This document shows, piece after piece, positions 2,838 through 21,372 of a stretch of 64,000 nucleotides of DNA. This DNA comes from an uncultured Acidobacteriota bacterium (lineage in GTDB: Bacteria; Acidobacteriota; Vicinamibacteria; Fen-336), in NCBI GenBank assembly GCA_963720545.1, contig OY970399.1, positions 3,904,001 through 3,968,000 on the forward strand, read 5' to 3'. The notes under the pieces were generated by a model. The model was not told where the DNA came from. It worked only from the letters and a program-made list of their open reading frames with translations, and did not search any database. The stretch's first letter is position 1. Each line of letters opens with the position of its first letter. The position numbers and the translations under genes were made by a program.

Positions 2838-3929
2838 GTGGGAGTCCGTGCCATGGTGATGACAGCGCCGCACACCGCCGTGGTGATGCGCGAGTTCGCC
2901 GAGCCGCACGCCGCCGACGGCGGCGCGGTGCTCGACACGATCGCGAGCGAAGTGTGCGGCACCGACGTCCACCTGCACCACGGCCGGCTCGCGGGGGTGC
3001 CGTACCCGATCGTTCCCGGACACGTCAGCCTCGGCACCATCCGTGAGCTGCGCGGCGAGCTCCGCGACGTCGACGGCCGCGCCTTCCGCACCGGCGAGCG
3101 GGTGACCTACTACGACGTCTTCGGCATCTGCGGCGAGTGCTGGCATTGCCTGGTCGCGAAGGCCGGGACGCGCTGCCCGCAGCGCCGCGTCTACGGCATC
3201 ACCACCTCGGCCGCGGATGGACTGCTCGGCGGCTGGTCGGAGCGCATCGAGATCCTGCCTGGCGTGCGGCTCCTGCGAATTCCCGACGAGCTCGACGATC
3301 TCGCTTTCCTCGGCGGCGGTTGCGGCGCGCCCACGGGTTTCCACGCCGTCGAGCGAGCCGGCATTCGCATGGGCGACACGGTGGTGGTGCAGGGCTCGGG
3401 GCCGGTGGGGTTGAGCGCCGCGGTGTTCGCCCAGCTGGCCGGCGCCGATCGCGTGCTGGTGATCGGCTCGCCGCAGCTGCGGCTCGCGGCGGCAGGGCGG
3501 CTCGGCGCCGCCGAAACGCTCGACATCGCGACGGCGTCGAGTGGCGAGCGCGCCGCGTGGGTTCGCGAACGCACTTCAGGCCGCGGCGCCGACGTTGTCA
3601 TCGAGGCGTCTGGCAATCCGGCGGCGGTCCGCGAGGGCCTCGAGATGCTGCGCGACGCCGGTCGCTACGTGGTCGTTGGGCAATACACCGACGCGGGCGA
3701 CGTCAGCCTCAACCCGCACGCGCACATCAACCGCAGGCACGCGACCATCCTCGGCTGCTGGGGATACGAGTTCACGCACCTGCACCGATGCCTGCGGATG
3801 ATGGCGCGCCACGCGCAACGCTTCGACTGGGGTTCGCTGGTGAGCGCCGACTATCGCCTCGAGCGCGCCAACGAGGCGCTCGACGACATGGCCAACCTGC
3901 GCGTGGTGAAGGCCGTGATCCGGCCTTAG
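2838..3929 (+). CDS. Zinc-dependent medium-chain alcohol dehydrogenase
   Basis: CGTDVH, PGH, CGECWHC...C structural zinc, GSGPVG Rossmann motif. Confidence 0.9.
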   Translation: MGVRAMVMTAPHTAVVMREFAEPHAADGGAVLDTIASEVCGTDVHLHHGRLAGVPYPIVPGHVSLGTIRELRGELRDVDGRAFRTGERVTYYDVFGICGECWHCLVAKAGTRCPQRRVYGITTSAADGLLGGWSERIEILPGVRLLRIPDELDDLAFLGGGCGAPTGFHAVERAGIRMGDTVVVQGSGPVGLSAAVFAQLAGADRVLVIGSPQLRLAAAGRLGAAETLDIATASSGERAAWVRERTSGRGADVVIEASGNPAAVREGLEMLRDAGRYVVVGQYTDAGDVSLNPHAHINRRHATILGCWGYEFTHLHRCLRMMARHAQRFDWGSLVSADYRLERANEALDDMANLRVVKAVIRP

Positions 3930-3933
3930 CCGC

Positions 3934-4596
3934 TCAGAAGCGCAGGGTGTGGCGCTGCTTGCGCCACTCGATCTCGACCTCGCCGGTGCCGATGCGCAGC
4001 ACCTTGACGTCGCCGATCTCGTCGCCCTCGAAGAAGATCCTGTCGTCGATGAGCGCGATCGGCTTGCCGTCGCGGGAGCTGATCGCCTGGAGGTGCGGCT
4101 CGCCCTTCATGCTCCCCGGCCCTGACGCACGGGGTTCGTTCGCAGCGCCCGATCCGCTGTCCGCCGGCGCCGCGGCTTCCGCAGTGCGTTGCGGGAGCGG
4201 TTCGGGTCGTACCGCCGGCGCCGCGGAGCGCGGCTGCACTTCACGCGGTGACTCGGGAACGTTGGCGGCGGCCGGCGCCGCGGTGCGGAACGTGCTGGGT
4301 GCAACCGGGGGCGGCTCGGCCGGCGCGACTACGGGCGCCGCAACCACCGGCGGCTGTGCCGCGGCGGGCGGCGGGGCGGCGGCTTGCCTCGCCGGTGGCA
4401 CCGAGTTCCTCGACGTCAGGAACGTCGTGCCGAGCCCGCCGAGCGCCACCAGCGCCAGTGCGCCGATCGCCAGCAGCCACACCGGCACCGCCCGCCTGCC
4501 GTCGCGCCACGGCGCTTCACCGGCGGTGATGATCGGCGCCGCGGCGCGGGCCTGCTCGCGCTCCAGCTTCTTCAGGGCTTCCAGGATGAGGCTCAC
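3934..4596 (-). CDS. GspB/ExeB-like protein
   Basis: N-terminus (V/M)SLILEALKKLEREQ, TM helix, Pro/Ala linker, C-terminal LQAIS...ALID...EGDEIG domain; overlaps the stop of the exeA-like gene. Confidence 0.75.
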   Translation of the reverse strand: MSLILEALKKLEREQARAAAPIITAGEAPWRDGRRAVPVWLLAIGALALVALGGLGTTFLTSRNSVPPARQAAAPPPAAAQPPVVAAPVVAPAEPPPVAPSTFRTAAPAAANVPESPREVQPRSAAPAVRPEPLPQRTAEAAAPADSGSGAANEPRASGPGSMKGEPHLQAISSRDGKPIALIDDRIFFEGDEIGDVKVLRIGTGEVEIEWRKQRHTLRF

Positions 4597-6131
4597 GGGC
4601 GCGCTCCTCCAAGTCTCGGCCGCGGGTAGTCGAGCCCGCTGTAGAGCGCCATCAACGTGCGCTGGCCGGGAATGCCGTCGGCCACGAGCGCGGTGTCGCG
4701 CTGGAAGTTCGCCACGTCGTCGGCCAGCAGGCCGGTGCCGCGCCGCCCGAGCCGCGCCAGGGCGCTCGACGCCCAGGGATAGGAGCGCGTGGAGTCGTCG
4801 GCGACGCCGTCGAAGTCGCGCCAGAGAAAGGTCGTCTGTCCCGTCCAGTACCGCTCCAGCACGCCCAGCGGCACGCGCAGGTCGCCCGACTCGAGGCGCA
4901 GCGTTGCGGAACCTCCATCGAGCGCCACCAGCGGCACGAAGCAGGTGGTCTCGGCGTTGGGCGGCGCCAGTTCGAGGATCGCGGGCACGTCGAGGCGGCG
5001 CACCTGGTCCAGCCGGCTCAGCATGGTCAAAGAGCGCAGCGGCGGTCCCGGCGTCCAGGCGGAGCGCACGCTGTTGACGGCGCTGCTCCACGACGCTTCG
5101 CGCTGCGCCGAGGCGAGAAACGCGTCGAGCGGCGGTGTCGGCACGGGAGTGGGCACCGAAGGCGCCGGGGCCGGCGTGGCGGCAGTAGCTTCGAGGCGTT
5201 CGCGCGCCTGCAGGCGCCCGGCGGGCAGCCACAGGTAGGCGGCGATCGCCAGCAGCGCGATGGCGCCGGCGCCCACCGCCCACGGCAGCGCGCGCTTCGG
5301 CATCCACGGCCCGGCGCCGCCGAACACCTCCTGCGCGGAACGATCGACCATGCCGCGGTCGATCTCGCGGGTGCCGCCGACGTAGCCGGCGAGAAGCGCC
5401 CGGTCGCACACCAGGTTGATGAGGCGGGGAATGCCGCCGGAGCGGCGCTGCACGGCGCGCAGCGCGCCGGTCGTGAACGCGACTTTGCCTTCGCCGCCGG
5501 CAACCGCCAGCCGATGCTTCACGTACGCCGACGTGTCGGCGAGGTCGAAAGGCGCCAGGTGGTAGCGCGCGGTGACGCGCTGCGCCAGCTGCCGCAGGTC
5601 GCGCCGCGCGAGCATCTCCTTCAGCTCGGTCTGGCCGATGAGGACGATCTGGATGAGCTTCTCGGTGTCGGTCTCGAGGTTCGAGATGAGCCGCACCTGC
5701 TCCAGCACGTCGCGGGTCAGGCCCTGAGCCTCATCGACCACCAGCACCACGCGCTGGGCGCGGGCGCGCGCGTCGAGGAGGTACCCGTGCAGGGCGTCCA
5801 TGTACGGCTTGGTCGCTCCGCGCTCGGTGTCGCGTGGCGTCGGGACGTGCAGTTCGTTCAGCACCGTCTCCAGCAGCTCGCCGGCGCTCACCGACGGATA
5901 CAGCACCACCGCGGTCGCGGTGCCCGGCTCGAGCTGCGACAGAAAGTAGCGGGCGAGTGTGGTCTTGCCCATGCCCACTTCGCCGGTGACGACCACGAAG
6001 CCGCCCCGTTCCTGGAAACCGAACTCGAGGTGCGCGAAGGCCTCGGCGTGACGGCCGGACAGGTACAGGTATTTCGGGTCCGGCGTGAGGTTGAATGGCT
6101 TCTCGGTGAAGCCGTAAAACGACTCGTACAT
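4593..6131 (-). CDS. ExeA/GspA-like AAA ATPase with TM segment and C-terminal peptidoglycan-binding domain
   Basis: MYESFYGFTEKPFNLTPDP, Walker A GEVGMGKTT, Walker B VVDEAQ, GIPRLINLVCDRALL; C-terminal VANFQRDTALVADGIPGQRT. Confidence 0.9.
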   Translation of the reverse strand: MYESFYGFTEKPFNLTPDPKYLYLSGRHAEAFAHLEFGFQERGGFVVVTGEVGMGKTTLARYFLSQLEPGTATAVVLYPSVSAGELLETVLNELHVPTPRDTERGATKPYMDALHGYLLDARARAQRVVLVVDEAQGLTRDVLEQVRLISNLETDTEKLIQIVLIGQTELKEMLARRDLRQLAQRVTARYHLAPFDLADTSAYVKHRLAVAGGEGKVAFTTGALRAVQRRSGGIPRLINLVCDRALLAGYVGGTREIDRGMVDRSAQEVFGGAGPWMPKRALPWAVGAGAIALLAIAAYLWLPAGRLQARERLEATAATPAPAPSVPTPVPTPPLDAFLASAQREASWSSAVNSVRSAWTPGPPLRSLTMLSRLDQVRRLDVPAILELAPPNAETTCFVPLVALDGGSATLRLESGDLRVPLGVLERYWTGQTTFLWRDFDGVADDSTRSYPWASSALARLGRRGTGLLADDVANFQRDTALVADGIPGQRTLMALYSGLDYPRPRLGGARP

Positions 6132-6178
6132 GGAGATCGTTGACCGTTTCGGAGTGTAGCATCGAAGCTTTGGCGGCC

Positions 6179-6835
6179 ATGGAAGCGACGATCGACGCCG
6201 GTGGTGGGGGCAAGGCGCCCTTTTCGCTCGCGGTGTTCGGCAGCGGCGGACCCGTCCTGGTGCTCGGCCACGGCGCCGGCGGCAACCGCAGGACCCCCTG
6301 GCTCGTGCGCATGGCCGAAACGCTCGGCGGTCGCGGCCGGCGCGTCGTCCTTTACAACTTTCCCTACACCGAAGCCGGTCGGAAGGTGCCCGACAAGCCC
6401 GACGTGCTCGAAGCCGCGATTGCCGCCGCCGCAGAGTGGTGCCGCAGCACACTCGGCGCGGAGAAGTTGGCGCTCGGCGGCAAGTCGATGGGTGGCCGCA
6501 TCGCCTCGCAGGCCGTCGCCAAGGGCCTGCGCTGCGACGCGCTCGTGTTCCTCGGCTATCCGCTGCACCCGCCGGGACAGCCGGACAAGCTGCGCGATGC
6601 ACACCTCGGGGGGATCCCGGTGCCGATGCTGTTCCTGCAGGGAACCCGCGACGCCTTCGCTTCGTGGGACCGGCTCGAGCCGGTGCTGGCGCGCCTGCCG
6701 AAAGCGACGCTCCACAAGGTCGAGGGCGGCGACCATTCGTTCGCGGTGCCGAAGAAGACCGGGCGCACAGCTGCCGCGGTCGAGGCCGAATGCGCCGCGG
6801 CCGTCTCGGACTGGCTCAGCGCGAAGGGACTGTAA
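6179..6835 (+). CDS. Alpha/beta hydrolase (Tex30/KANL3-like family)
   Basis: [33 protein letters not shown]. Confidence 0.85.
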
Positions 6836-8889
6836 AAGCCGCCGCCTCCGCCTGCAGCGCTTCCCACTGCGCCATCAGGTCGTCGATGCCGGCGAGGTGT
6901 TTCTGGCGGTCGGACACCGCCTGGTCGGCGCGGGCGCGGTCGTCGTAAAAGCCCGCCGAAGCCATCAACGACTCGAGGTCGCGGACCGCCTGTTCCTGCA
7001 CAGCGATCTGCTGCTCAAGTTCCTTGAGCCGCGTCGCACGTTTGCGCGCTTCGCGCTCCTGCGCCTGCTTCTCGGCATGCGAGATCGCGCCGCGCAGCCG
7101 CGGCGCCAGCGGGTTGGCGTTCGCGGCGGGGGCAGCAGCGGGCGCCGCTTCCGCCTGCGGCGCAACCGCGTGCTGCCTCGGCCGCTCCCGCTTCTGCACG
7201 CGCGCCGGCGCCTGCGGCCGCGCCGCGGGCGCGGCAACCACGGCCGGCTTCGCGGCAGCGAGCGGCGGCAGGGCGGCGCCCAGTTCGCGCGCCTTCTTCC
7301 AGGCGAGGAAATCTTCGTAGCCGCCGCTGTAGGAGAACGCCTCGCCCCCGCCCACCTCGACCACGCGGTTCGCGAGCTTGTCCACGAAATAGCGGTCGTG
7401 CGAAACGAAGATCAGCGTGCCGGCATAGTCGAGCAGCGCCTCGAGCAGGATCTCCTTCGAGTCGAGGTCGAGATGGTTGGTCGGCTCGTCGAGCACCAGC
7501 AGGTTGCTCGCGGTCAGCAGCATCTTGGCGAGCGCCAGGCGGTTGCGCTCGCCGCCCGAGAGCACGTTCGTTTTCTTGTAAACGTCGTCGCCCGAGAACA
7601 GGAAGCCGCCGAGGATGTGGCGGATCATCGGCACCATCGTCGACGGGCTGGCCGACGACATCTCCTCGTACACCGTGCGCGCCGGGTTCAGGATCTCGGC
7701 CTGGTTCTGCGCGAAGTAGTCGAGCAGCACCTGGTGGCCGACGATGCGCACGCCCGCATCCGGCTGGTCCACACCCGCGAGGATGCGCATCAGGGTCGAC
7801 TTGCCGGCGCCGTTCGGCCCGACGAGCGCCACGCGCTCGCCGCGCTCCACCAGCAGGTCCACGCTGCGCAGCACCACGTTGGCGCCGTACGTGCGGCCCA
7901 CGCGCCTTGGCCTCGAGGACGATGCGCCCCGGACGCGGCGCCTCGGGAAACTTGAAGCGGATCTTCTTGCGCTGCGGCGGGATCTCGATGCGCTCCACCT
8001 TGTCGAGCTGCTTGATGCGGCTCTGCACCTGCTTCGCCTTGGTCGCCTGGTAGCGGAAGCGGTTGATGAACGCCTCGGTCTTCTCGATCTCCTCCGACTG
8101 GCGGCGGTGCGACTCGAGCAGGCGCTCCATGCGCGCGGCGTGCTCGACCACGTACTTCGAGTAGTTGCCGTGATAGTCGGTCAGCGTCTTCAGGCCCACC
8201 TCCGTGACGCGCTTGACGGTCGCGTCCAGGAAGTAGCGGTCGTGCGACACCAGCACCACCGAGCCCGGGTATTCGTTGAGGTAGTCCTCGAGCCAGTTGC
8301 GCGCGGGCAGGTCGAGATGGTTGGTCGGCTCGTCCATCAGCAGCAGGTTGGGGCGCGCCAGCAGCAGCTTGGCGAGAGCGATGCGCATCTGCCAGCCGCC
8401 GGAGAACTCCTCGGTCTTGCGCTCCTGGTCGGCGAGCGTGAAGCCGAGCCCCTTCAGGACGTCGGCGATGCGCGCATCCATCTCGTAGCCACCGAGGTGC
8501 TTGAAGCGCTCGGTGATGTCGGCATAGCGCTCGAGCAGCTTTTCGTGCGCTCCCTCGGCATCCTCGACCGCCAGCTTGTCCTCGATCTCGTGCTGCTCCG
8601 CCTTCAGCGCCAGCAGCTCCGCGAACGCGAGCATCACCTCGGCGTGCACGGTGCGTCCCTTGTGGACGATGCCGTCCTGCGGCAGGTAGCCGATGGTGGT
8701 GTCCGATGCCATGCGAATCTGGCCCGCGTCCGGCTCTTCGAGGCCCGCGAGCATGCGCAGCAGTGTCGTCTTGCCCGAGCCGTTCGGGCCGGACAGGCCG
8801 ATGCGATCGCGCTTCTTCACGTGCCAGGACACGTCCTGGAGGAGCACGCGTTCGCCGTACCGTTTGGTGAGGCCTTCGACGTGGATCAT
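6816..8889 (-). CDS. ABC-F family ATPase with one apparent +1 frameshift near 7903
   Basis: Two ABC domains ([17 protein letters not shown] and [17 protein letters not shown]) in two frames, joined at ...GCC AAG GCG C GTG GGC...; C-terminal coiled coil. Confidence 0.9.
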
Positions 8890-8978
8890 GGTGTGTGCAA
8901 GAGCTCGAACCCCCTATTTTAGGCGATCCGGCCCGGTTCCTTGCAGGGGCGGCCGTTGCGCCGGGATAATGTCCCCCA

Positions 8979-10418
8979 ATGTCATCGGTCACCGTTGAAA
9001 AGTCGTTTGCCGGCCTCGGCCTTAAGGACGCCACCCTCCAAAGCCTCGAAGCCAAGGGTTACAAGACCCCCACCGACGTGCAGTTCGAGACCATCCCGAA
9101 GGCAATCGCCGGCATCGACCTGGTGGTGCAGTCGCGCACCGGCACCGGCAAGACCGCCGCCTTCGGCATCCCGATCGTCGAGAAGGTGGACCTCGCGAAG
9201 GCCGAGCCGCAGGCGCTGGTGCTGGCACCGACGCGCGAGCTCGCCGTGCAGGTGGCGCAGGAAGTGACCGAGCTGGGGCGCGCGGGCAAGATCAAGGTGG
9301 AGGCGGTCTACGGCGGCGATTCGCTCGACCGCCAGATCGAAGGCATCAAGGCGGGGGCGCAGGTCATCGTCGGCACCCCCGGCCGCGTCCTCGACCACCT
9401 GCGCCGGGGCACGCTGGTGTTGAAGGGCCTGCGCATGCTGGTGCTCGACGAAGCCGACCGCATGCTCGACATGGGCTTCGCGCAGGAGATGAGCCAGATC
9501 ATGGAGTACCTGCCGGCGGAGCGGCAGACGCTGCTGTTCTCGGCGACGGTGCCGGTGAGCATCCGCGGGCTCATCTACCACTACCTCACCGACCCCGAGT
9601 GGGTGCTGCTCTCGACCGACCAGGTGTACGTGCGCGAGGTCGAGCACCTCTACGTGCTGACCTCACGCCTGCACAAGGAGGCGACGCTCGAGCGCATCCT
9701 CGAGTACGAGAAGCCGGCCGCCTCGATGATCTTCTGCAACACCAAGGAGGAGACGCGCAACGTCTCGGCGTTCCTCGCCGGCCGCGGCCACCGCGCCGCC
9801 ATGCTCTCGTCGGACCTGACGCAGAAGAAGCGCGAATCGGTGCTGCTCGCGTTCCGCAACGGCAAGGTGCATCACCTCGTCACCACCGACGTCGCCTCGC
9901 GCGGCATCGACATCGAGGACCTGAGCCACGTCTTCATCTTCTCGACGCCCGATTCGCCCGAACAGTACATTCACCGCGCCGGCCGCACCGGGCGGGTGGG
10001 GAAGTCGGGGCGCGCCATCAGCCTGGTCTCGGCCCACGACCTGATGAACTTCAACCGCCAGGTGCGCCGCTACCGCATCGAGGTGCAGGAACTGCAGGCA
10101 CCCTCCGACGACGAGGTGCGCGCGCGCAAGGCGCAGCGCATCGTCGACGACATCGCCGTGGACGCAGCGACGCTGCCGCTCGAGACCTTCTTCGAGCTGT
10201 CGGGGGCCGCGCGCCTGCTGGCGGCACGCGAGGACCGCGACCGGGTGGTCGTGCTGCTGCTCGCGAAATACCTGGCGGCGAACGCGCCGCCGCCCGAACC
10301 GGAAGAGCCGGCCGACGAGGAGCCGCCCTACCGCGCGGGCGACCAGGCGGGCGGACCGCGCCGGCGCTACGGCGGCGGTGGCGGCGGCAGCAGCCGGCGC
10401 CGCGGGCGCGGCCGCTAG
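8979..10418 (+). CDS. DEAD-box RNA helicase
   Basis: Q motif, RTGTGKT, PTRELA, TPGR, DEAD, SAT, HRAGRTGR; Arg/Gly-rich tail. Confidence 0.95.
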   Translation: MSSVTVEKSFAGLGLKDATLQSLEAKGYKTPTDVQFETIPKAIAGIDLVVQSRTGTGKTAAFGIPIVEKVDLAKAEPQALVLAPTRELAVQVAQEVTELGRAGKIKVEAVYGGDSLDRQIEGIKAGAQVIVGTPGRVLDHLRRGTLVLKGLRMLVLDEADRMLDMGFAQEMSQIMEYLPAERQTLLFSATVPVSIRGLIYHYLTDPEWVLLSTDQVYVREVEHLYVLTSRLHKEATLERILEYEKPAASMIFCNTKEETRNVSAFLAGRGHRAAMLSSDLTQKKRESVLLAFRNGKVHHLVTTDVASRGIDIEDLSHVFIFSTPDSPEQYIHRAGRTGRVGKSGRAISLVSAHDLMNFNRQVRRYRIEVQELQAPSDDEVRARKAQRIVDDIAVDAATLPLETFFELSGAARLLAAREDRDRVVVLLLAKYLAANAPPPEPEEPADEEPPYRAGDQAGGPRRRYGGGGGGSSRRRGRGR

Positions 10419-15315: not shown

Positions 15316-16366
15316 TCAGGCGCGGCCGGGCACGGCGGTCGCGGCGCGCCGCAGCCACCGGTCGAAGAACCAGTTGCCGATGCGGCACTTGCCGAGCGCC
15401 GTGACGATGTAGCCCATGCGCTCGAGGCCATAGAGGAGCGAGTCGATGCGCTCCGGACCGCCGAGGCTGCTGGTGAGGGTCGTGATCGTCACCTCGCCCT
15501 CGCGCGCGATCGTCAGCAGCATCTCGCGCTCGTCCTTGCCGAGCGTCTGGAAGTCGACCGCGAAGAAGTTCGCGACCATTTCGTCGGCGGCCACCTGCGA
15601 CAGGGTCGCGCCGAGGTCGCGGCTCTCGAACAGGCGGCTCGCGATGAGCTGCACCAGGAACGGGTTGCAGCCGGTGCGGTCGATGATGGTGGCGCGCTCG
15701 TCGCCGGTGAAGTTGCCGCGCGCCAGCAGCTCGCCGGTCTCCTCGGGGGTCAAGCGGCGTCAGGTAGACGGGCGGGATGAAGCCTTGCAGGAACGGGGAA
15801 GTGGCGAAGCTCGTGGTCTCGTCGATCATCGCGAGCCTCTTGGTGGAGGTGAGCACCGAGCGCAGGTCGGGGCCCTTTTGCAGGATGCGCCGCAGCCGCG
15901 CCAGCACCACCGGCGCCTGTTCGGCGACCGTCAGCAGCTCCTCCGCCTCGTCCACCAGCAGCAGCATGCGCCAGCCGCTCTTGACGGTGCGGCGCGCCAG
16001 CGTCGTGAGCATGTCGGGCACCGTGAGGCCCTCGAGCTGGTCGATCTCGACGTCGGTGGCGCGGCGGAACGGGTCGCTGTCCTCGACGCTCTCCAGCAGG
16101 CTGTCGGCCAGCCCGCGGGCGTCGCCGCTGCCCTGCAGGTCCCAGTAGAGCGGCGCGTAGGGGGTCTGCGGATTCTGCAGCACCCGGTACTCGAGCTCCT
16201 TCAGGAGGCTGGTCTTGCCGAGGCGGCGTGCACCCACCACCCACAGCGAGTCGCGTTCGCCGTCGAGGATCTGGCGCACCAGGGAGCCGCGGCCGAAGAA
16301 GTTCTCGCCGCGCACCCAGCTGCCGGCGACGTACGGATTGCGCGCTTCGCTCACCACGCTGCCCAT
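15316..16366 (-). CDS. Soluble P-loop ATPase (AAA+/STAND-like) with C-terminal winged helix; apparent +1 frameshift near 15751
   Basis: NPYVAGSWVRGENFFGR, Walker A GARRLGKTS, Walker B LLVDEAE, TGCNPFLVQ; frames join at CCG CTT G ACC CCC. Confidence 0.8.
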
Positions 16367-16370
16367 TCTC

Positions 16371-18829
16371 TCAGGAGACCGCTTGTGCGGCGCTGCCCCC
16401 CGCTTCGTCGGGGGCATCGCCTTCGCGCCCCTCTTCGTAGACGAAGGCTTCGCCGGCCGCTGCGATGTCGGCCGCGGTGACGGTCGAGCGGCCCTCCTCG
16501 AGCATGCGGTTGACCGCATGGATGCACAGCCGCTGGATCGCGTACGGCTTCATGCCGCTGATCCGCAGCACCGCCTCCACCGCGTCGCCCTGGTAGCGGA
16601 AGATGCCCTGGACCGGCTCGCGGATCAGCCCCTCGGCCTCTTCGCGCGAGAACTCCTTCAGCTCGATCTCGTCGAAGAAGTTGTACCAGGGGCTGCCTTC
16701 GCTCTTCCAGTTGCGGCGGATGCCGACGCCGCTCATCACCGCCACCAGGTGCTCGGAGAAGGTCTTCATGAAGATGCTGCGCAGCCGCTGGTTGACGCGG
16801 TCGGAGTACTCGTTCAGCACGTCCACCTCGTCGATGAGCAGCGCCAGCTTGACCTTCTTGGCGGTGCGTCCCTTCAGGTCCTCGATGACGCGCTGCAGGT
16901 CGTGCGCAGAAGTCGCGGCCGTCGTAGTCGTCGTCGTCGGGGCCGAACTTGCAGCGCCGCCATGGCCTCGGGCGAGGGCACCGTGGTCTCGACCACGTCG
17001 GCCATCACGGTGTGGAAGAACGCGGCTTCGGGAACGCCCTGCAGGTCGGAGGCGACCGGGAAGAAGCGGTAGTCGTCGCGGTCGTCCTTCTCGAGCGCCT
17101 TCTTCAGGTGGTGCAGCAGGCTGGTCTTGCCGATGCGTCGCTCGCCCGTGATCATCAGGCTGTTGTGGTGCAGGACGTTGAGGATCCGTGTCAGCAGCTT
17201 CTGCCGGCCGAAGAACATGTCGTCGGCGAGCACCGGCGCGCCGGCGATGTAGGGGTTGAAGCGCCGGTTGACCGCGCGCCGCCGTCGCACGCGCTGCATC
17301 GCGAAGCCGGCGCCGACGAGACCGAGGGCGGTGAGCGCCGCCGCCGGCAGGAAGGCGCGCGTCTCGTAAAAGCGCAGCTGCCGCGTGATGGTGAACGGCT
17401 GCGAGGCGCGCAGCCCCTGGGCGTCGGTCGCGACGATCAGCAACTCGTTGGCGCCGGGCGCCAGCGGGAAGGTGCTGTTGATCGCCTGGGTGCGGGCCGG
17501 CTCGCCGTCTTCGACCGCGGTCGGCCGCAGGTCGGCGACCAGCGCCTGGTTGAGGTAGATCTCGACGCGCGAGAGTTGCCGCTCGTCGCTGACCACCGCC
17601 TCCACCTTGACCGTCGGCTGGTCCACCTTCGGCTGCGGCACCGACGGCGCCATCATGACGATGAGCGGCATGCGGTTGGGGAAGAAGCGCGCCAGCAGCG
17701 AGGCCGCCGTCAGCTCCAGCGAGCGCTCGCGGCGCTGCGCGGCGCGTGCGTTCTGCGGGTCGAGGCGCAGGATTTCCTCGTAGCGCAGCTCGGCCTCGGG
17801 ATGCCTGCCGCTCGTGAACAGGGCATCCGCTTCCGACTCGAGACGGCTGATCTCCGCGCGGCGATCGGTCTCGACGCGCAGGCTGTTGACCCGGTCCTCG
17901 GCCTGGGCGCGCAGGCGGCGCGCTTCGGCGTTCCCGGGATCGGCGGCCGCCTCGGTGAGCGGGCGCAGCGCGTCGGCGAACTGCCCCGCGGCGAACAGGC
18001 GCTTGCCTTCCTCGAACTTGCCGGCGAGCTCCGCCTTCGAAGTGGTTTGCCGCAGCTGCTCCTGCGCGGCGGCGATGCCTTCCTGCGCCTCGCGGTTGAC
18101 GGCGTCGAGCGACAGCACCTCGGTGAACTTGAGGATGGCGTCGGTCTCGTTGCCGGCGCGCACCGCCGCCTTCGCCTCGTCGAGCGCCGTCTGCAGGCGC
18201 CGCGCGCGGGTCTGACGCTCAGCGGCCATGCGGCGCTCCTCGAGCAGGTCGTTCTTGCGCTTCTCGATCGACGGGATGAGCGCGGGGTTGATCTTCTGGT
18301 AGATCGACTCCGCCTTGGTCCAGGCGGCGAGCGCCTCGTCGTCGCGGCCGGCGCGGCGCTTGTCGTCGCCTTCCTTCAGGAAGCGCTCGGCTTCGTCGCG
18401 CGCGGCGCGGATCTGGTTCTGCTCGCTTTGCGACTTCACCTCGGCCTGGCGCGCCTGCAGCTTCTGCCACAACTCGGCGCGCTTCTTGATGATGCCCTGT
18501 GTTTCCTCGGAGCCGAACATCGCCACCGCGCGGTCGTTGTCGCCGCGCTCCAGGTAGCAAAGGCCGAGGTAGTAGTAGGGCGTGTAGTCGACGAAGTCGA
18601 CGCCGTAGGTGCGCACGCTCAGCTCCGAGCGCGGCCGCAGTTCCACGGCCTTCTGCAGGTCGGCGAGCGCCGCGGGGGTGCACTGGCCGGCGCGGAAGTT
18701 GCGGCCGCGGTCGTCGATGGCGCGCTGGTAGTAGACGTACCACTCGTCGGCCGCGCGCGCCGGGACGGCGCGCAGGCCGAGGTGGGTGGCGACCAGGAGG
18801 CAGGCGGCGACAATACGTCCGGACGGCAT
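16371..18829 (-). CDS. Transmembrane protein: signal peptide, TPR repeats, Ig-like domain, TM helix, cytoplasmic P-loop ATPase; two apparent +1 frameshifts near 16951 and 16908
   Basis: PYYYLGLCY and other TPR-like helices; LAPGANELLIVATD Ig domain; TM helix then RRRR; NPYIAGAPV...FFGR, GERRIGKTS; corrected frame gives LLIDEVD and SGMKPYAIQ. Confidence 0.8.
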
Positions 18830-18864: not shown

Positions 18865-19926
18865 CTACTTCTCGTACATCGCGGCAATCAGGGCCCCGCG
18901 CGCGGTGGCGGTGAGGGGATCCTTGGCGAGACGCACGCCGGCGATCTCGATGGGCAGCGGCCTGGCCTTCATGGTGCGCTCGAACAGCTCCTTGAAGCCC
19001 TTGGCCTTGGCGGTGCCGCCGGAAAGCACGATCGGCAGCGGCCGGTCGGTGCGCGGCAGCTTGTCGGTCGCGGCCAGCGACTTGCGCAGCGAGTCGACCA
19101 GCGCGTCGACCAGATCCTCGTAGTAGATGTTGAGGGCCTTCTCGATCTTGTCCTTGCCGGGACGGCCGAGGTCGAGCCCCTCTTCCTTCGCCATCTTCAC
19201 CCGCGTCGCCGACTCGGCAACCACCGCACCCACCGAGGCGTCGATCGAATCGCCGCCCTTCTGGAGGCTGTACATGATGGCCGGGATCGACAGGAAGGCG
19301 AGGGCGACGTTGCACATGCCACCGCCGCAGGAGATGCCGATGCCGCTGAAGTTGTTGTCCTCGAGTTCGCTGAAGACGACTGCCAGGCCCTCGTTGACCG
19401 CAACCGCGCGGTAACCGAGGCCGTCGAAGTACTTGCGCAGCGTGGCCTCGTGGTAGGTGAGCTCGCTCTCACGGCCGTCGGGCGCCGCGGGCACCGAGAA
19501 CGCCAGCACGTCGCCCTGGCCCTTGGCCTTCGGCACCACGTTCTGCACGATCACGTCGAGCACCTGCATCGCCGACTTCTCGCGCGCGTTCAGCAGGCCG
19601 AAGGCCATGGGCCGGCGGCTCTCCGCGCCGAACATGTTGGCGAACTTGTCGGTGGCGTCGCCGTAGACGACGATCTCCTCGCCGTCGCGGTAGTAGGGAA
19701 TGTTCTGCTGGCCGAGGATCGTCTCGGTGAAGCGCGAATACGGCACCTGGATGAACGCGTTCAATTGCGCCACCGTCTCGACCCCGTTGCCGCGCTTGCG
19801 GGCGGCGACGATGCGGCTCGTTCCGACATCGACGCCTTGGGGACTGCTACCCTTCTGGGCTTCCTCGTTCATCCGCTCCTCCGCATCGGGTTGCACCTTC
19901 CACAACTGATCCTTGCGTTCTTCCAT
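18865..19926 (-). CDS. Actin-fold ATPase, volactin-like
   Basis: Phosphate-1 GVDVGTSRI, connect-1 NEGLAVVFSEL, phosphate-2 GISCGGGMCNV, adenosine IVLSGGTA, connect-2 DPLTATARGALIAA. Confidence 0.85.
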   Translation of the reverse strand: MEERKDQLWKVQPDAEERMNEEAQKGSSPQGVDVGTSRIVAARKRGNGVETVAQLNAFIQVPYSRFTETILGQQNIPYYRDGEEIVVYGDATDKFANMFGAESRRPMAFGLLNAREKSAMQVLDVIVQNVVPKAKGQGDVLAFSVPAAPDGRESELTYHEATLRKYFDGLGYRAVAVNEGLAVVFSELEDNNFSGIGISCGGGMCNVALAFLSIPAIMYSLQKGGDSIDASVGAVVAESATRVKMAKEEGLDLGRPGKDKIEKALNIYYEDLVDALVDSLRKSLAATDKLPRTDRPLPIVLSGGTAKAKGFKELFERTMKARPLPIEIAGVRLAKDPLTATARGALIAAMYEK

Positions 19927-19936
19927 TATCTAGGGC

Positions 19937-21262
19937 CTAGCCTCCGCTGGCGACGTCAACCTCGTCCTTCCGGGCCGAGACTTCCTGCGCTCCGGCCTTC
20001 GTCTGCTCCAGAATCCACCGGTCGTACATCGCGCGCTTGCGCAGGCGCAGCGCCTCGATGCTCTCGCCCGTCTGGCGGGCTTCCGCGACCAGCGCCTGCT
20101 CGGCGCTCGCGACGCCCGGCCACGGCTCGCCCTGCATCTTCGCCAGGAACTCGTCGTCGTAGTGGAAGCCGAACTCCAGCACCGCCGGCGACGGCACGTC
20201 GTAGGCGTTCGGCAGGCCGAACGCGCCGAACGGAAAGCCGCGCGCCCAGTCGACGTGGTGGCCGATGAGGTGCTCACGCGAGTTGACGCTCGTCAGGCCG
20301 TGCGTGACGCACATCTGCGGCGCGATCTCGTAGCGCAAGCGCAGATGCTCCGTGAGAGCGAGTCCCGATGCAAGCTGGGCCTGGGTGATGGGCAGCGCGC
20401 GCCCGCCCTCCCAGCGCGTCTCGAAGCACACGCCGATGAAGGCGCTGTTGAGGTTGAGGAAAGTGGTGTCGCCGTCCTTCCACACGGAAAAGCCCGCGTG
20501 GTTGGCGCGGCCGTTCTCCTCGACGATGCGGTAGACGCGGCCGAAGCGGTCGATGACGTAGTTGTAGAGCCGGCGCCTGGCGATGTACTTCATCAGGCCG
20601 TGCGAGCTCTTCTTGAGGTTGTCGTTGAACGATTCCTCGAGCGGCCAGATGTCGCTTTCCGAGGTGTGAAACAGGATGCCGACAGGCCTGGTGTAGGTCT
20701 CGCGCTGCATCCCGGTGCGGCGGAACACGCGGTATCGGCGCTCGGGGCCGGCCACGGCGAAATTGGTCTCGATGCGCAGGCCGTTGCTGTACTGCTCGAA
20801 GTTCGCGCCGCGCTCCACCAGCCAGATGCTCTTCGGCGCGGGCGCGGACGAGGCCGGCATCGGTTCGGCGACAGGATCGAGACGCGGCGCGCCTGCCAGC
20901 ACGGGCGCCGCGGCGCGGGCCGCGCGCGCGTCGCGCGTGCTCCAGCGGGCCGCCGCGAACAAGGAAGCCGCGAGCAGCGCGCCGACCACGGCGAAGCCGA
21001 GCCAGGCGGGACGGTGCCGCTTCGTCTTCCTGGCGACCGCGCGGCTCAGGCTGGAGTGGCCGAGCAACGGATCCACCGAGTCGTAGCCGAGCATGCGCTG
21101 CGCCATGCGGTGCACGCCGGGGATGGGGATGAGGCGCAGCAGGCGGTCGGTGCGGCGGTAGCGGGAGATCGACCCGCGCAGGTGGCGCAGCTTGGCCACC
21201 GGATCGGCAATGACCTCGGTTTCGCGCTCGAGCGCGCGCAGCAGCGGCTCGCCTGTGTTCAC
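19937..21262 (-). CDS. Membrane-anchored N-acetylmuramoyl-L-alanine amidase (Amidase_2/PGRP-like)
   Basis: Single TM helix, then GILFHTSES, YNYVIDRFGRVY, RANHAG, NSAFIGVCFE, ITQAQ, VTHG, HVD. Confidence 0.82.
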   Translation of the reverse strand: MNTGEPLLRALERETEVIADPVAKLRHLRGSISRYRRTDRLLRLIPIPGVHRMAQRMLGYDSVDPLLGHSSLSRAVARKTKRHRPAWLGFAVVGALLAASLFAAARWSTRDARAARAAAPVLAGAPRLDPVAEPMPASSAPAPKSIWLVERGANFEQYSNGLRIETNFAVAGPERRYRVFRRTGMQRETYTRPVGILFHTSESDIWPLEESFNDNLKKSSHGLMKYIARRRLYNYVIDRFGRVYRIVEENGRANHAGFSVWKDGDTTFLNLNSAFIGVCFETRWEGGRALPITQAQLASGLALTEHLRLRYEIAPQMCVTHGLTSVNSREHLIGHHVDWARGFPFGAFGLPNAYDVPSPAVLEFGFHYDDEFLAKMQGEPWPGVASAEQALVAEARQTGESIEALRLRKRAMYDRWILEQTKAGAQEVSARKDEVDVASGG

Positions 21263-21372
21263 GGACTCCTAAATCCTTTGTGGCCTGCGAATTATAGGAC
21301 ACGAATTTCGGACCCGGCAATGCTTTCGCGAAGCCGATGTGCGCTGGATCCGCCGCCGGGCCCATTGTATGG

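Follow-up and report, generated by a model that had tools for sequence, protein, structure and literature searches.

We asked what an actin resembling haloarchaeal volactin, a protein that the literature consulted treats as archaeal, does in a walled bacterium with an outer membrane. The gene in question (positions 18865..19926, minus strand) lies in a 64,000-nucleotide (nt) stretch, hereafter the window, of an uncultured soil Acidobacteriota bacterium (Vicinamibacteria; assembly GCA_963720545.1, contig OY970399.1, positions 3,904,001 to 3,968,000). It is an ATG-started open reading frame (ORF) encoding a volactin-family actin-like ATPase of 353 amino acids (aa). An earlier note, made from the letters of the window, had likened it to the volactin of Haloferax volcanii and knew of no functional description in bacteria. 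Our analysis supports the assignment of the protein as a full-length member of the volactin family and not an MreB, FtsA, or MamK. It further places the gene in a conserved two-gene cassette with a membrane-anchored peptidoglycan amidase.

A full-length volactin-family actin

Searches with the Pfam Volactin model (PF25216) recovered the window protein over nearly the entire profile (positions 3 to 321 of 321) with 269.5 bits against a cut-off of 35 (E = 6.4e-80). The same protein remained below the cut-offs of the models for other actins, namely, MreB_Mbl (PF06723; 16.9 bits, cut-off 27), Pfam Salactin (PF25229; 23.7 bits, cut-off 27.1), its NCBIfam counterpart (NF053533; 27.3 bits, cut-off 400), and NCBIfam MamK (NF040964; 33.7 bits, cut-off 400), with the salactin matches covering the C-terminal third only. 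No match to FtsA (PF14450 or TIGR01174) was returned from Pfam or NCBIfam at E values up to 0.1, and none of the NCBIfam models was passed. For calibration, PF25216 gave 436 to 466 bits with homologs from Halogeometricum, Natrinema, and Haloarcula, 286 bits with a planctomycete protein, 211 to 240 bits with the four copies scanned from phages and IMG/VR contigs, only 43 bits with a MamK-family actin of another acidobacterium, and no match with the host's own MreB. BLASTP comparisons with the Halogeometricum borinquense member showed 36% identity over 325 residues (E = 9e-77), against 24% over 175 residues (E = 0.001) with the host MreB. The haloarchaeal side of these comparisons consists of the Pfam model and the homologs from the three genera named, and not of H. 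volcanii VolA itself. On three haloarchaeal replicons, no salactin was found above the cut-off.

We then placed the protein in a quick maximum-likelihood tree of 118 rows, comprising 115 family members and 3 outgroup rows (two MamK-like proteins and one MreB), with salactin, ParM, crenactin, and H. volcanii VolA lying outside the sampling. The tree drew on 76 of 150 metagenomic representatives; 73 were dropped for being shorter than 315 or longer than 400 aa, and P0194 was entered under its own label. All 115 family rows split from the MamK-like and MreB rows (support of 97 in the Shimodaira-Hasegawa-like approximate likelihood ratio test). A starred 51-row clade of Acidobacteriota and Gammaproteobacteria contains the window protein, which lies more narrowly in a starred 21-row clade of Vicinamibacteria and Steroidobacteraceae nested there. 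The three haloarchaeal rows form a clade of their own (support, 100) elsewhere in the tree. Thus, the resemblance to volactin proposed in the earlier note is borne out by the profile search, BLASTP, and the tree, which together set the protein apart from MreB and the MamK-like actins. The haloarchaeal clade is separate, however, and not sister to the window protein. The tree does not settle the branching at the base of the family, and donor and recipient lineages cannot be read from it.

Active-site signature and predicted fold

The sequence blocks by which the protein was originally singled out (NAFIQVPYS, FANMFGAESRRPM, FSVPAAP, YHEATL, NEGLAVVFSELEDNNFSGIGISCGGGMCNV, GGDSID, and IEKALNIYYEDL) are all present in the translation. 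The five actin-ATPase motifs, likewise claimed at that stage, lie in columns that are invariant or nearly so when 37 family sequences are aligned: phosphate-1 (D33, G35, and T36), connect-1 (E179), phosphate-2 (G201 and G203), adenosine (G303 and G304), and connect-2 (G344). A further claim was that phosphate-2 carries a Ser in place of the usual Asp. This was confirmed by two pairwise comparisons, in which S199 stands opposite the Asp of MamK (HMMER alignment) and of the host MreB (BLASTP). It was confirmed again when 384 family members were aligned with hmmalign to a profile of the 37-sequence alignment, in which S199 is likewise opposite Asp in both the MamK-like and MreB rows. Across these 384 proteins, Ser occupies position 199 in 371, Met occupies position 204 in 340, and Asn occupies position 206 in 372; the corresponding residues of the MamK-like and MreB rows are D, T, and D, respectively. 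The Ser at phosphate-2 is therefore a mark of the family and not a peculiarity of the window gene. The family signature as a whole (D-x-G-T, RRPM, Y-H, N-E-G, S-x-G-x-G-M-x-N, GGD-x-x-D, K-E, I-Y-Y, and G-G-T) is complete in the window protein, and its columns are invariant or nearly so (e.g., H159 in 380 and E179 in 377 of the 384 members).

Structure prediction with AlphaFold2, using the 37-sequence alignment as the input, yielded a confident model (mean predicted local distance difference test score, 92.0; predicted template modeling score, 0.88) in which only residues 1 to 12 fall below 50. The predicted fold is that of an actin with four subdomains. Its core spans approximately residues 30 to 353, and residues 1 to 29 form a low-confidence N-terminal extension. 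Fold comparisons with Foldseek and VIA-align placed polymerizing actins on top, with the MamK filament as the best match (5ljv_A; Z = 28.3; root mean square deviation, 3.0 over 294 residues), followed by the BeeR filament (8r2n_A; Z = 27.1), MreB (1jcf; Z = 26.4), and F-actin (Z of about 25). Identity to these structural matches is 10 to 21%. Profile searches of the PDB again gave MamK as the best match (5jyg; 55.7 bits), and a phmmer search of the PDB with the single protein recovered no matches at E values up to 10. Neither type of sequence search found a volactin-family member among solved structures.

A single contig of 4.09 Mb (completeness, 94.8%) contains the window, and the volactin-type gene occurs in this genome in a single copy. 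The genome also encodes a canonical MreB (497 bits) and an FtsA (143.9 bits; a 463-aa open frame). The volactin-type protein is thus a third actin-fold protein beside an ordinary elongasome and divisome. Its closest homologs are titled Vicinamibacteria or Acidobacteriota, and no magnetosome genes were found near it.

A conserved cassette with a bitopic amidase

The gene immediately upstream on the same strand (19937..21262, minus strand; 441 aa), whose stop codon is 10 nt from the actin start, encodes a peptidoglycan amidase of the Amidase_2 (AmpD/AmiD) type (PF01510; 55.5 bits, cut-off 26). Its structural model is that of a bitopic protein, with helices in residues 6 to 82, a transmembrane (TM)-like helix at residues 84 to 112 (20927..21013, minus strand), a disordered linker, and a confidently predicted domain at residues 147 to 400, for which Foldseek placed AmpD, AmpDh2/3, AmiD, and endolysins on top. 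The predicted TM helix is matched by an aligned hydrophobic stretch in all 24 sequences of an amidase alignment spanning Vicinamibacteria, Blastocatellia-type, and Steroidobacteraceae homologs. The same alignment revealed a conserved motif, P-x-x-K-L-R-x-L, in the predicted cytoplasmic tail (residues 21 to 28; 21179..21202, minus strand), in which P21 and L25 never vary and L28 is kept in at least 90% of the sequences. In the model, this motif opens a helix at residues 21 to 42, and we propose that it is a putative docking site for the actin. In the periplasmic domain, H199, H255, H321, H336, and D338 are invariant; from the spacing of AmpD, we take H199, H321, H336, and D338 to be putative zinc ligands. 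Upstream of the amidase start lies a promoter-like sequence (TTGCCG-18-TATAAT; 21291..21320, minus strand) that matches the consensus at 10 of 12 positions and is given as a consensus match only. A consensus scan found no terminator-like site between the two genes.

To judge how general this arrangement is, we used loci from a scan of GTDB species in which 441 of 481 candidate loci were confirmed; counts out of 80 below refer to the best 80 of these, among which are Vicinamibacteria and Blastocatellia as well as 24 loci titled Pseudomonadota. A homologous amidase lies directly upstream of the actin, on the same strand and at a distance of 5 to 209 nt, in 74 of the 80. By record title, the pairing holds in 49 of 54 Acidobacteriota, 24 of 24 Pseudomonadota, and 1 of 2 Bacillota-labeled loci; two of the six unpaired loci have less than 120 nt of upstream DNA. 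Among the loci of closer relatives, a homologous amidase adjoins the actin in 14 of 16, the misses being one locus that ends before any upstream DNA and the copy in genome G225. The two genes also co-occur at the level of genomes: in a 201-genome sample of the phylum, an amidase profile recovered the full-length type (500 to 602 bits) in four genomes, all four of which carry a strong volactin, and in none of the 196 sampled genomes without a strong volactin, three of which gave domain-level matches of 45 to 48 bits. In Steroidobacter flavus, the pair stands alone between genes for a TonB-dependent receptor, a BNR-repeat protein, and a desaturase. In the Blastocatellia-type lineages (loci L028 and L030; 7 of 80 loci), a bitopic zinc-ribbon/TM/SPOR protein is additionally encoded just upstream of the amidase. 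As far as we found in the sources open to us, this actin-amidase cassette, conserved across two phyla, is so far undescribed.

One metagenomic protein, P0147 (494 aa), runs in one ORF from the final part of an Amidase_2 domain into the first half of a volactin domain. It is probably a read-through or frame error of the adjacent pair, because a true amidase-volactin fusion would be topologically odd.

Phyletic distribution of the family

A word-indexed search in which 8,000 candidates were scored recovered at least 3,276 clusters at E values up to 0.001, and the best 120 of these all carry PF25216. An exhaustive search of representatives at 50% identity recovered 1,232 proteins at E values up to 0.001, of which 779 reached 1e-10 and 335 reached 1e-30. 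Within the order of the host, the gene is present in 39 of 41 genomes and in all 23 of high quality. Only five of the 201 genomes sampled from the phylum carry a strong copy (G000, G004, G056, G089, and G225; 256 to 275 bits), and three more gave matches of 38 to 39 bits, of which those in G047 (L043) and G081 (L044) are MamK-family actins; the third such genome is G065. The MamK-family actin that these other Acidobacteriota carry in place of a volactin scores 374.9 bits with NCBIfam MamK (cut-off 400) and 214 bits with BeeR. Beyond the phylum, the family has cultured carriers at approximately 55% identity in Steroidobacter flavus, S. agaridevorans, S. gossypii, Peristeroidobacter soli, and P. 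agariperforans. The gene is patchy around Steroidobacter: sampling of the order gave copies above the cut-off in 2 of 81 genomes, and sampling of the GTDB family in 3 of 61, which fits a transfer into a sublineage. Further carriers are metagenome-assembled genomes of Planctomycetota and haloarchaeal replicons. The family is thus large and, among its named members (Acidobacteriota, Steroidobacteraceae, and Planctomycetota), mostly bacterial, with additional members in haloarchaea and huge phages.

Membership of bacterial proteins in the family is itself already recorded in databases, in the form of precomputed Pfam matches on thousands of metagenomic proteins and of an NCBI name: the planctomycete protein P0331 is called disk-shape morphogenesis protein volactin. 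Such naming is inconsistent; the Vicinamibacteria homologs P0064, P0077, and P0113 are called cell division protein FtsA, which looks like a misnomer, given that the window protein has no FtsA match and that the host has a separate FtsA. In agreement with the earlier note, we encountered no functional description of a bacterial volactin, the databases giving membership only. In the openly searchable literature, a range that leaves out subscription journals and bioRxiv supplements, we found no mention of bacterial volactin homologs or of a link to an amidase. A 2025 paper counts four characterized families of bacterial actins (ParM, FtsA, MamK, and MreB) and adds its own as a fifth (PMC12645912). 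We considered whether this fifth family, the cyanobacterial FcmB, might be the same as the present one and rejected this, as FcmB is related to ParM and AlfA.

Several further occurrences were recorded during these searches. Full-length members are encoded by two huge uncultured phages (L042, LR745208.1, 485 kb; and L051, LR756511.1, 595 kb) with 36% and 29.5% identity, respectively, and by five IMG/VR contigs (L034 to L038); these copies make up an actin family of phages that differs from the tubulin and actin systems already known there. A row in the ESM Atlas gave Uroviricota as the commonest taxon, and phage copies were indeed found, without an amidase. For P0194, a haloarchaeal origin suggested by its acidic composition was rejected, as its named relatives are Planctomycetota. 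In two metagenomic contigs titled Clostridia and Heliobacteriaceae (L110 and L115), the actins match Blastocatellia copies or cluster tightly with them: the tree puts L110 together with L117, and L115, which is outside the tree, shows the same tblastn identities as L112. These bins are probably mislabeled or contaminated, and we therefore do not read them as evidence for carriage by Bacillota.

A proposed function and its rivals

Our preferred reading, which we hold to be about as likely as not, is that a cytoplasmic volactin filament positions or regulates the amidase. In this proposal, the product of the window gene would be a volactin-type actin that binds ATP, forms filaments in the cytoplasm, and works with the amidase as a two-gene unit. 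The amidase, for its part, would comprise a cytoplasmic tail of ~83 residues, a single TM helix, and a periplasmic N-acetylmuramoyl-L-alanine amidase domain; as the catalytic domain must face its periplasmic substrate, the topology would place the conserved tail in the cytoplasm. Inspection of the actin sequence and model, which is not a formal test, showed no membrane-targeting feature or amphipathic terminal helix, and for this reason we propose that the amidase tail may hold the actin at the inner membrane, acting as its membrane adaptor. The polymer could then set where or when the amidase removes peptide stems from the peptidoglycan in the periplasm, with local wall remodeling, cell separation, and shape change being candidate processes. 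That the window protein polymerizes is suggested by the signature at phosphate-2 that it shares with the relatives of H. volcanii volactin, together with the dynamic filaments formed by a volactin-green fluorescent protein fusion in that archaeon (PMC10869688). Dynamic polymerization and a role in the rod-to-disk transition are known only for the H. volcanii protein (PMC10869688). The family membership and fold, the conserved pairing, the strict co-occurrence, the tail conservation, and the AmpD/AmiD-like fold of the amidase, as described above, count in favor of the proposal, as do the core-gene behavior in the host order (39 of 41 genomes, single copy) and the zinc-ribbon/TM/SPOR gene, as a second link to peptidoglycan.

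Several observations weigh against it. Four of the 80 loci lack the amidase despite having sufficient upstream DNA, and the one of the four that was examined, L117, encodes a fusion of HU with the actin. Nor is the link family-wide: in all 11 loci inspected from haloarchaea, phages, IMG/VR, and G225, the neighborhood of the actin contains no amidase. Moreover, adjacency and cotransfer can arise without physical contact between the products. The host also has two Amidase_3 genes and one SPOR protein; together with its own MreB and FtsA, these leave no functional gap that would need a volactin. Filament formation by the bacterial members is argued from homology, and the Ser at phosphate-2 might alter ATP hydrolysis. 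Finally, HU-volactin fusions occur in a sister subclade (L117:5647-6969, with HU at residues 1 to 78 and volactin at 118 to 436; P0122; and L030:6870-8303), and in L030 the amidase and the HU-actin ORF occur together, pointing to a link with DNA. The variety of fusions implies that the family serves more than one cellular context, which makes a DNA-linked role a live rival.

In such a role, the actin would be a DNA- or nucleoid-associated cytomotive filament that organizes or segregates chromosomes or plasmids by a ParM-like logic, and the amidase would be incidental or secondary. Besides the HU fusions in L117, P0122, and the L030 ORF, this is suggested by a ParB-type helix-turn-helix (HTH) preceding the volactin domain in P0182 (and weakly in P0331) and by the ParA/MinD-like ATPase gene beside the L029 actin. 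We nevertheless consider it unlikely for the window protein, whose clade lacks a DNA-binding domain (residues 1 to 29 being short and of low confidence), is strictly paired and co-occurs with the amidase, and, in the host order, carries the gene as a chromosomal, single-copy core gene. Similarly improbable, if slightly less so, is that the protein is a nonpolymerizing actin-fold ATPase that switches the amidase allosterically across the membrane, as in the FtsEX-EnvC logic, with no cytoskeleton involved. The tail-TM-amidase architecture would suit transmembrane signaling, filaments of bacterial members are so far unobserved, and the phosphate-2 loop reads S-x-G-x-G-M-x-N where the polymerizing relatives compared have D-x-G-x-G-T-T-D. 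However, the haloarchaeal members have this same signature, and the H. volcanii volactin forms dynamic filaments (PMC10869688); further, the best structural matches are filament-forming proteins, with the MamK and BeeR filaments on top.

The cassette could also be phage derived, or a mobile lysis or defense element that combines an endolysin-like amidase, a phage-type actin, and STAND-like NTPases. Two huge phages and five IMG/VR contigs do encode family members, the amidase gives weak matches to PHROGs endolysins (23 to 29 bits), P-loop/STAND-like genes lie downstream, and the pair has apparently moved between phyla, being found in 3 of 61 genomes of the GTDB family of Steroidobacter against 39 of 41 in the host order. 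Yet the actin itself has no PHROGs or PADLOC match, the NTPase matches are weak (17 to 25 bits), no amidase adjoins the copies on phages and viral contigs, and in the host order the gene is single copy in a conserved chromosomal synteny. A phage or defense origin is accordingly weakly supported at best, and we hold this explanation to be very improbable.

Returning to the filament-amidase proposal, we put forward only tentatively a broader version, in which the locus would represent an unrecognized third actin-guided, hydrolase-centered peptidoglycan machine encoded by a phylum-crossing two-gene cassette, within a family that would be mainly bacterial and phage borne and of which the haloarchaeal protein would be one offshoot. 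What can be said of the volactin family is that it is large and widespread in bacteria and that, in one subfamily, the actin is strictly coupled to a cell wall hydrolase anchored in the membrane. The pairing offers a testable hypothesis, that of a cytoplasmic polymer steering peptidoglycan cleavage, and the cultured carriers in Steroidobacter and Peristeroidobacter make it open to experiment. It also bears on the origin of haloarchaeal volactin and on how an actin functions with Ser in place of the phosphate-2 Asp.

Comparison with known systems

The window protein shares with volactin of H. volcanii (VolA, HVO_2015) the full-length PF25216 match, the conserved blocks, and the S-x-G-x-G-M-x-N signature, and both are extra actins beside the main shape and division systems. 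It differs in belonging to another clade of the family and in having a host with peptidoglycan and an outer membrane. A haloarchaeon, having no peptidoglycan, offers no substrate for an amidase, and the three haloarchaeal volactin loci examined have no amidase gene. These differences in clade, envelope, and partner mean that the disk-shape role is not simply transferable to the window protein. MamK and BeeR are the closest solved structures (MamK by profile and both by fold) and are, like the window protein, bacterial actins additional to MreB; a true MamK-family actin of the same phylum, however, falls in the outgroup of our tree.

FtsA is known to hold the tail of the bitopic FtsN, and MreB to hold RodZ; the proposed mechanism follows the logic of both. 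The FtsA-FtsN(1-29) complex (7q6i) and a structure of the MreB-RodZ type (2wus) are among the fold matches of the window actin. With the FtsA/FtsN system, the proposed arrangement would share a logic that combines a cytoplasmic actin fold, the short tail of a bitopic partner, and periplasmic amidase chemistry; in some volactin lineages, SPOR proteins encoded in the same operon add a likeness to FtsN and the division amidases. Here, in contrast, the amidase itself is the bitopic partner, and it is of the Amidase_2 and not the Amidase_3 type. With MreB and RodZ, the likeness lies in an actin fold, a membrane partner with a cytoplasmic actin-binding domain, and a polymer coupled to periplasmic wall enzymes, but MreB guides wall synthases, whereas the partner of the window actin is a hydrolase. 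As for the amidase, its periplasmic domain has the fold of AmpDh2, AmpDh3, and AmiD (Foldseek E values of 2e-7 to 3e-4; 18 to 23% identity) and retains invariant His and Asp positions. These are soluble enzymes or lipoproteins, whereas the partner amidase is TM anchored, with a conserved tail of ~83 residues and extra conserved segments flanking the catalytic domain.

Downstream genes and other domain contexts

Downstream of the actin, on the same strand, lies a gene (16371..18829, minus strand) for a protein with tetratricopeptide repeats (TPRs; TPR_2), an Ig-like domain, a TM segment, and a P-loop domain of the STAND-like kind (weak AAA_16/nSTAND matches). It is followed by a second P-loop NTPase gene (15316..16369, minus strand; AAA_22, 30.3 bits). 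Both are frame disrupted. A single 815-aa ORF of the relative L019 aligns to the first region in two frames, with the break between ~16904 and 16949 at a short C run (CCCC), and a single 354-aa ORF of L019 aligns to the second in two frames that meet at 15752/15753, where there is a CCCCC run. These breaks could be homopolymer indel errors of the single-contig assembly or could mark real pseudogenes. The two genes follow the actin on its strand in 28 of the 80 loci, exclusively in Acidobacteriota-titled ones; in four more, the TPR/P-loop gene is upstream on the opposite strand. In the host order, the chromosomal synteny around the actin is kept (GNAT, TPR protein, and RecG genes).

Elsewhere in the family, the volactin domain is combined with a variety of other N-terminal domains, including zinc ribbons (P0133, P0134, and P0151), a receiver domain (P0132), and the ParB-type HTH mentioned above (27.8 bits in P0182). 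Further fusions include Wzz/GNVR/ParA-like domains of the tyrosine kinase type (1,160 aa) and tandem volactin domains, with P0185, P0123, and P0149 among the examples. An intein/Hint domain is present in 8 of 52 long representatives (P0172, P0186, P0213, P0240, P0241, P0245, P0257, and P0270), in some cases with LAGLIDADG or HNH endonucleases, and is inserted at approximately profile positions 170 to 200, near the phosphate-2 loop.

Two gene neighborhoods complete this survey. The amidase-less locus L029 of G225 (3578-9408), in which the ParA/MinD-like ATPase gene adjoins the actin, also encodes, two genes upstream, a protein with a weak match to archaeal MreB-like_C (26.3 bits, below the cut-off). 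On plasmid pHBOR01 of Halogeometricum borinquense (L039; 234437-247405), the actin is annotated as cell division protein FtsA, and at a distance of approximately 3 kb there are rdfA and an SMC-related gene specific to archaea, which are the same kind of shape genes as those studied with volactin in H. volcanii.

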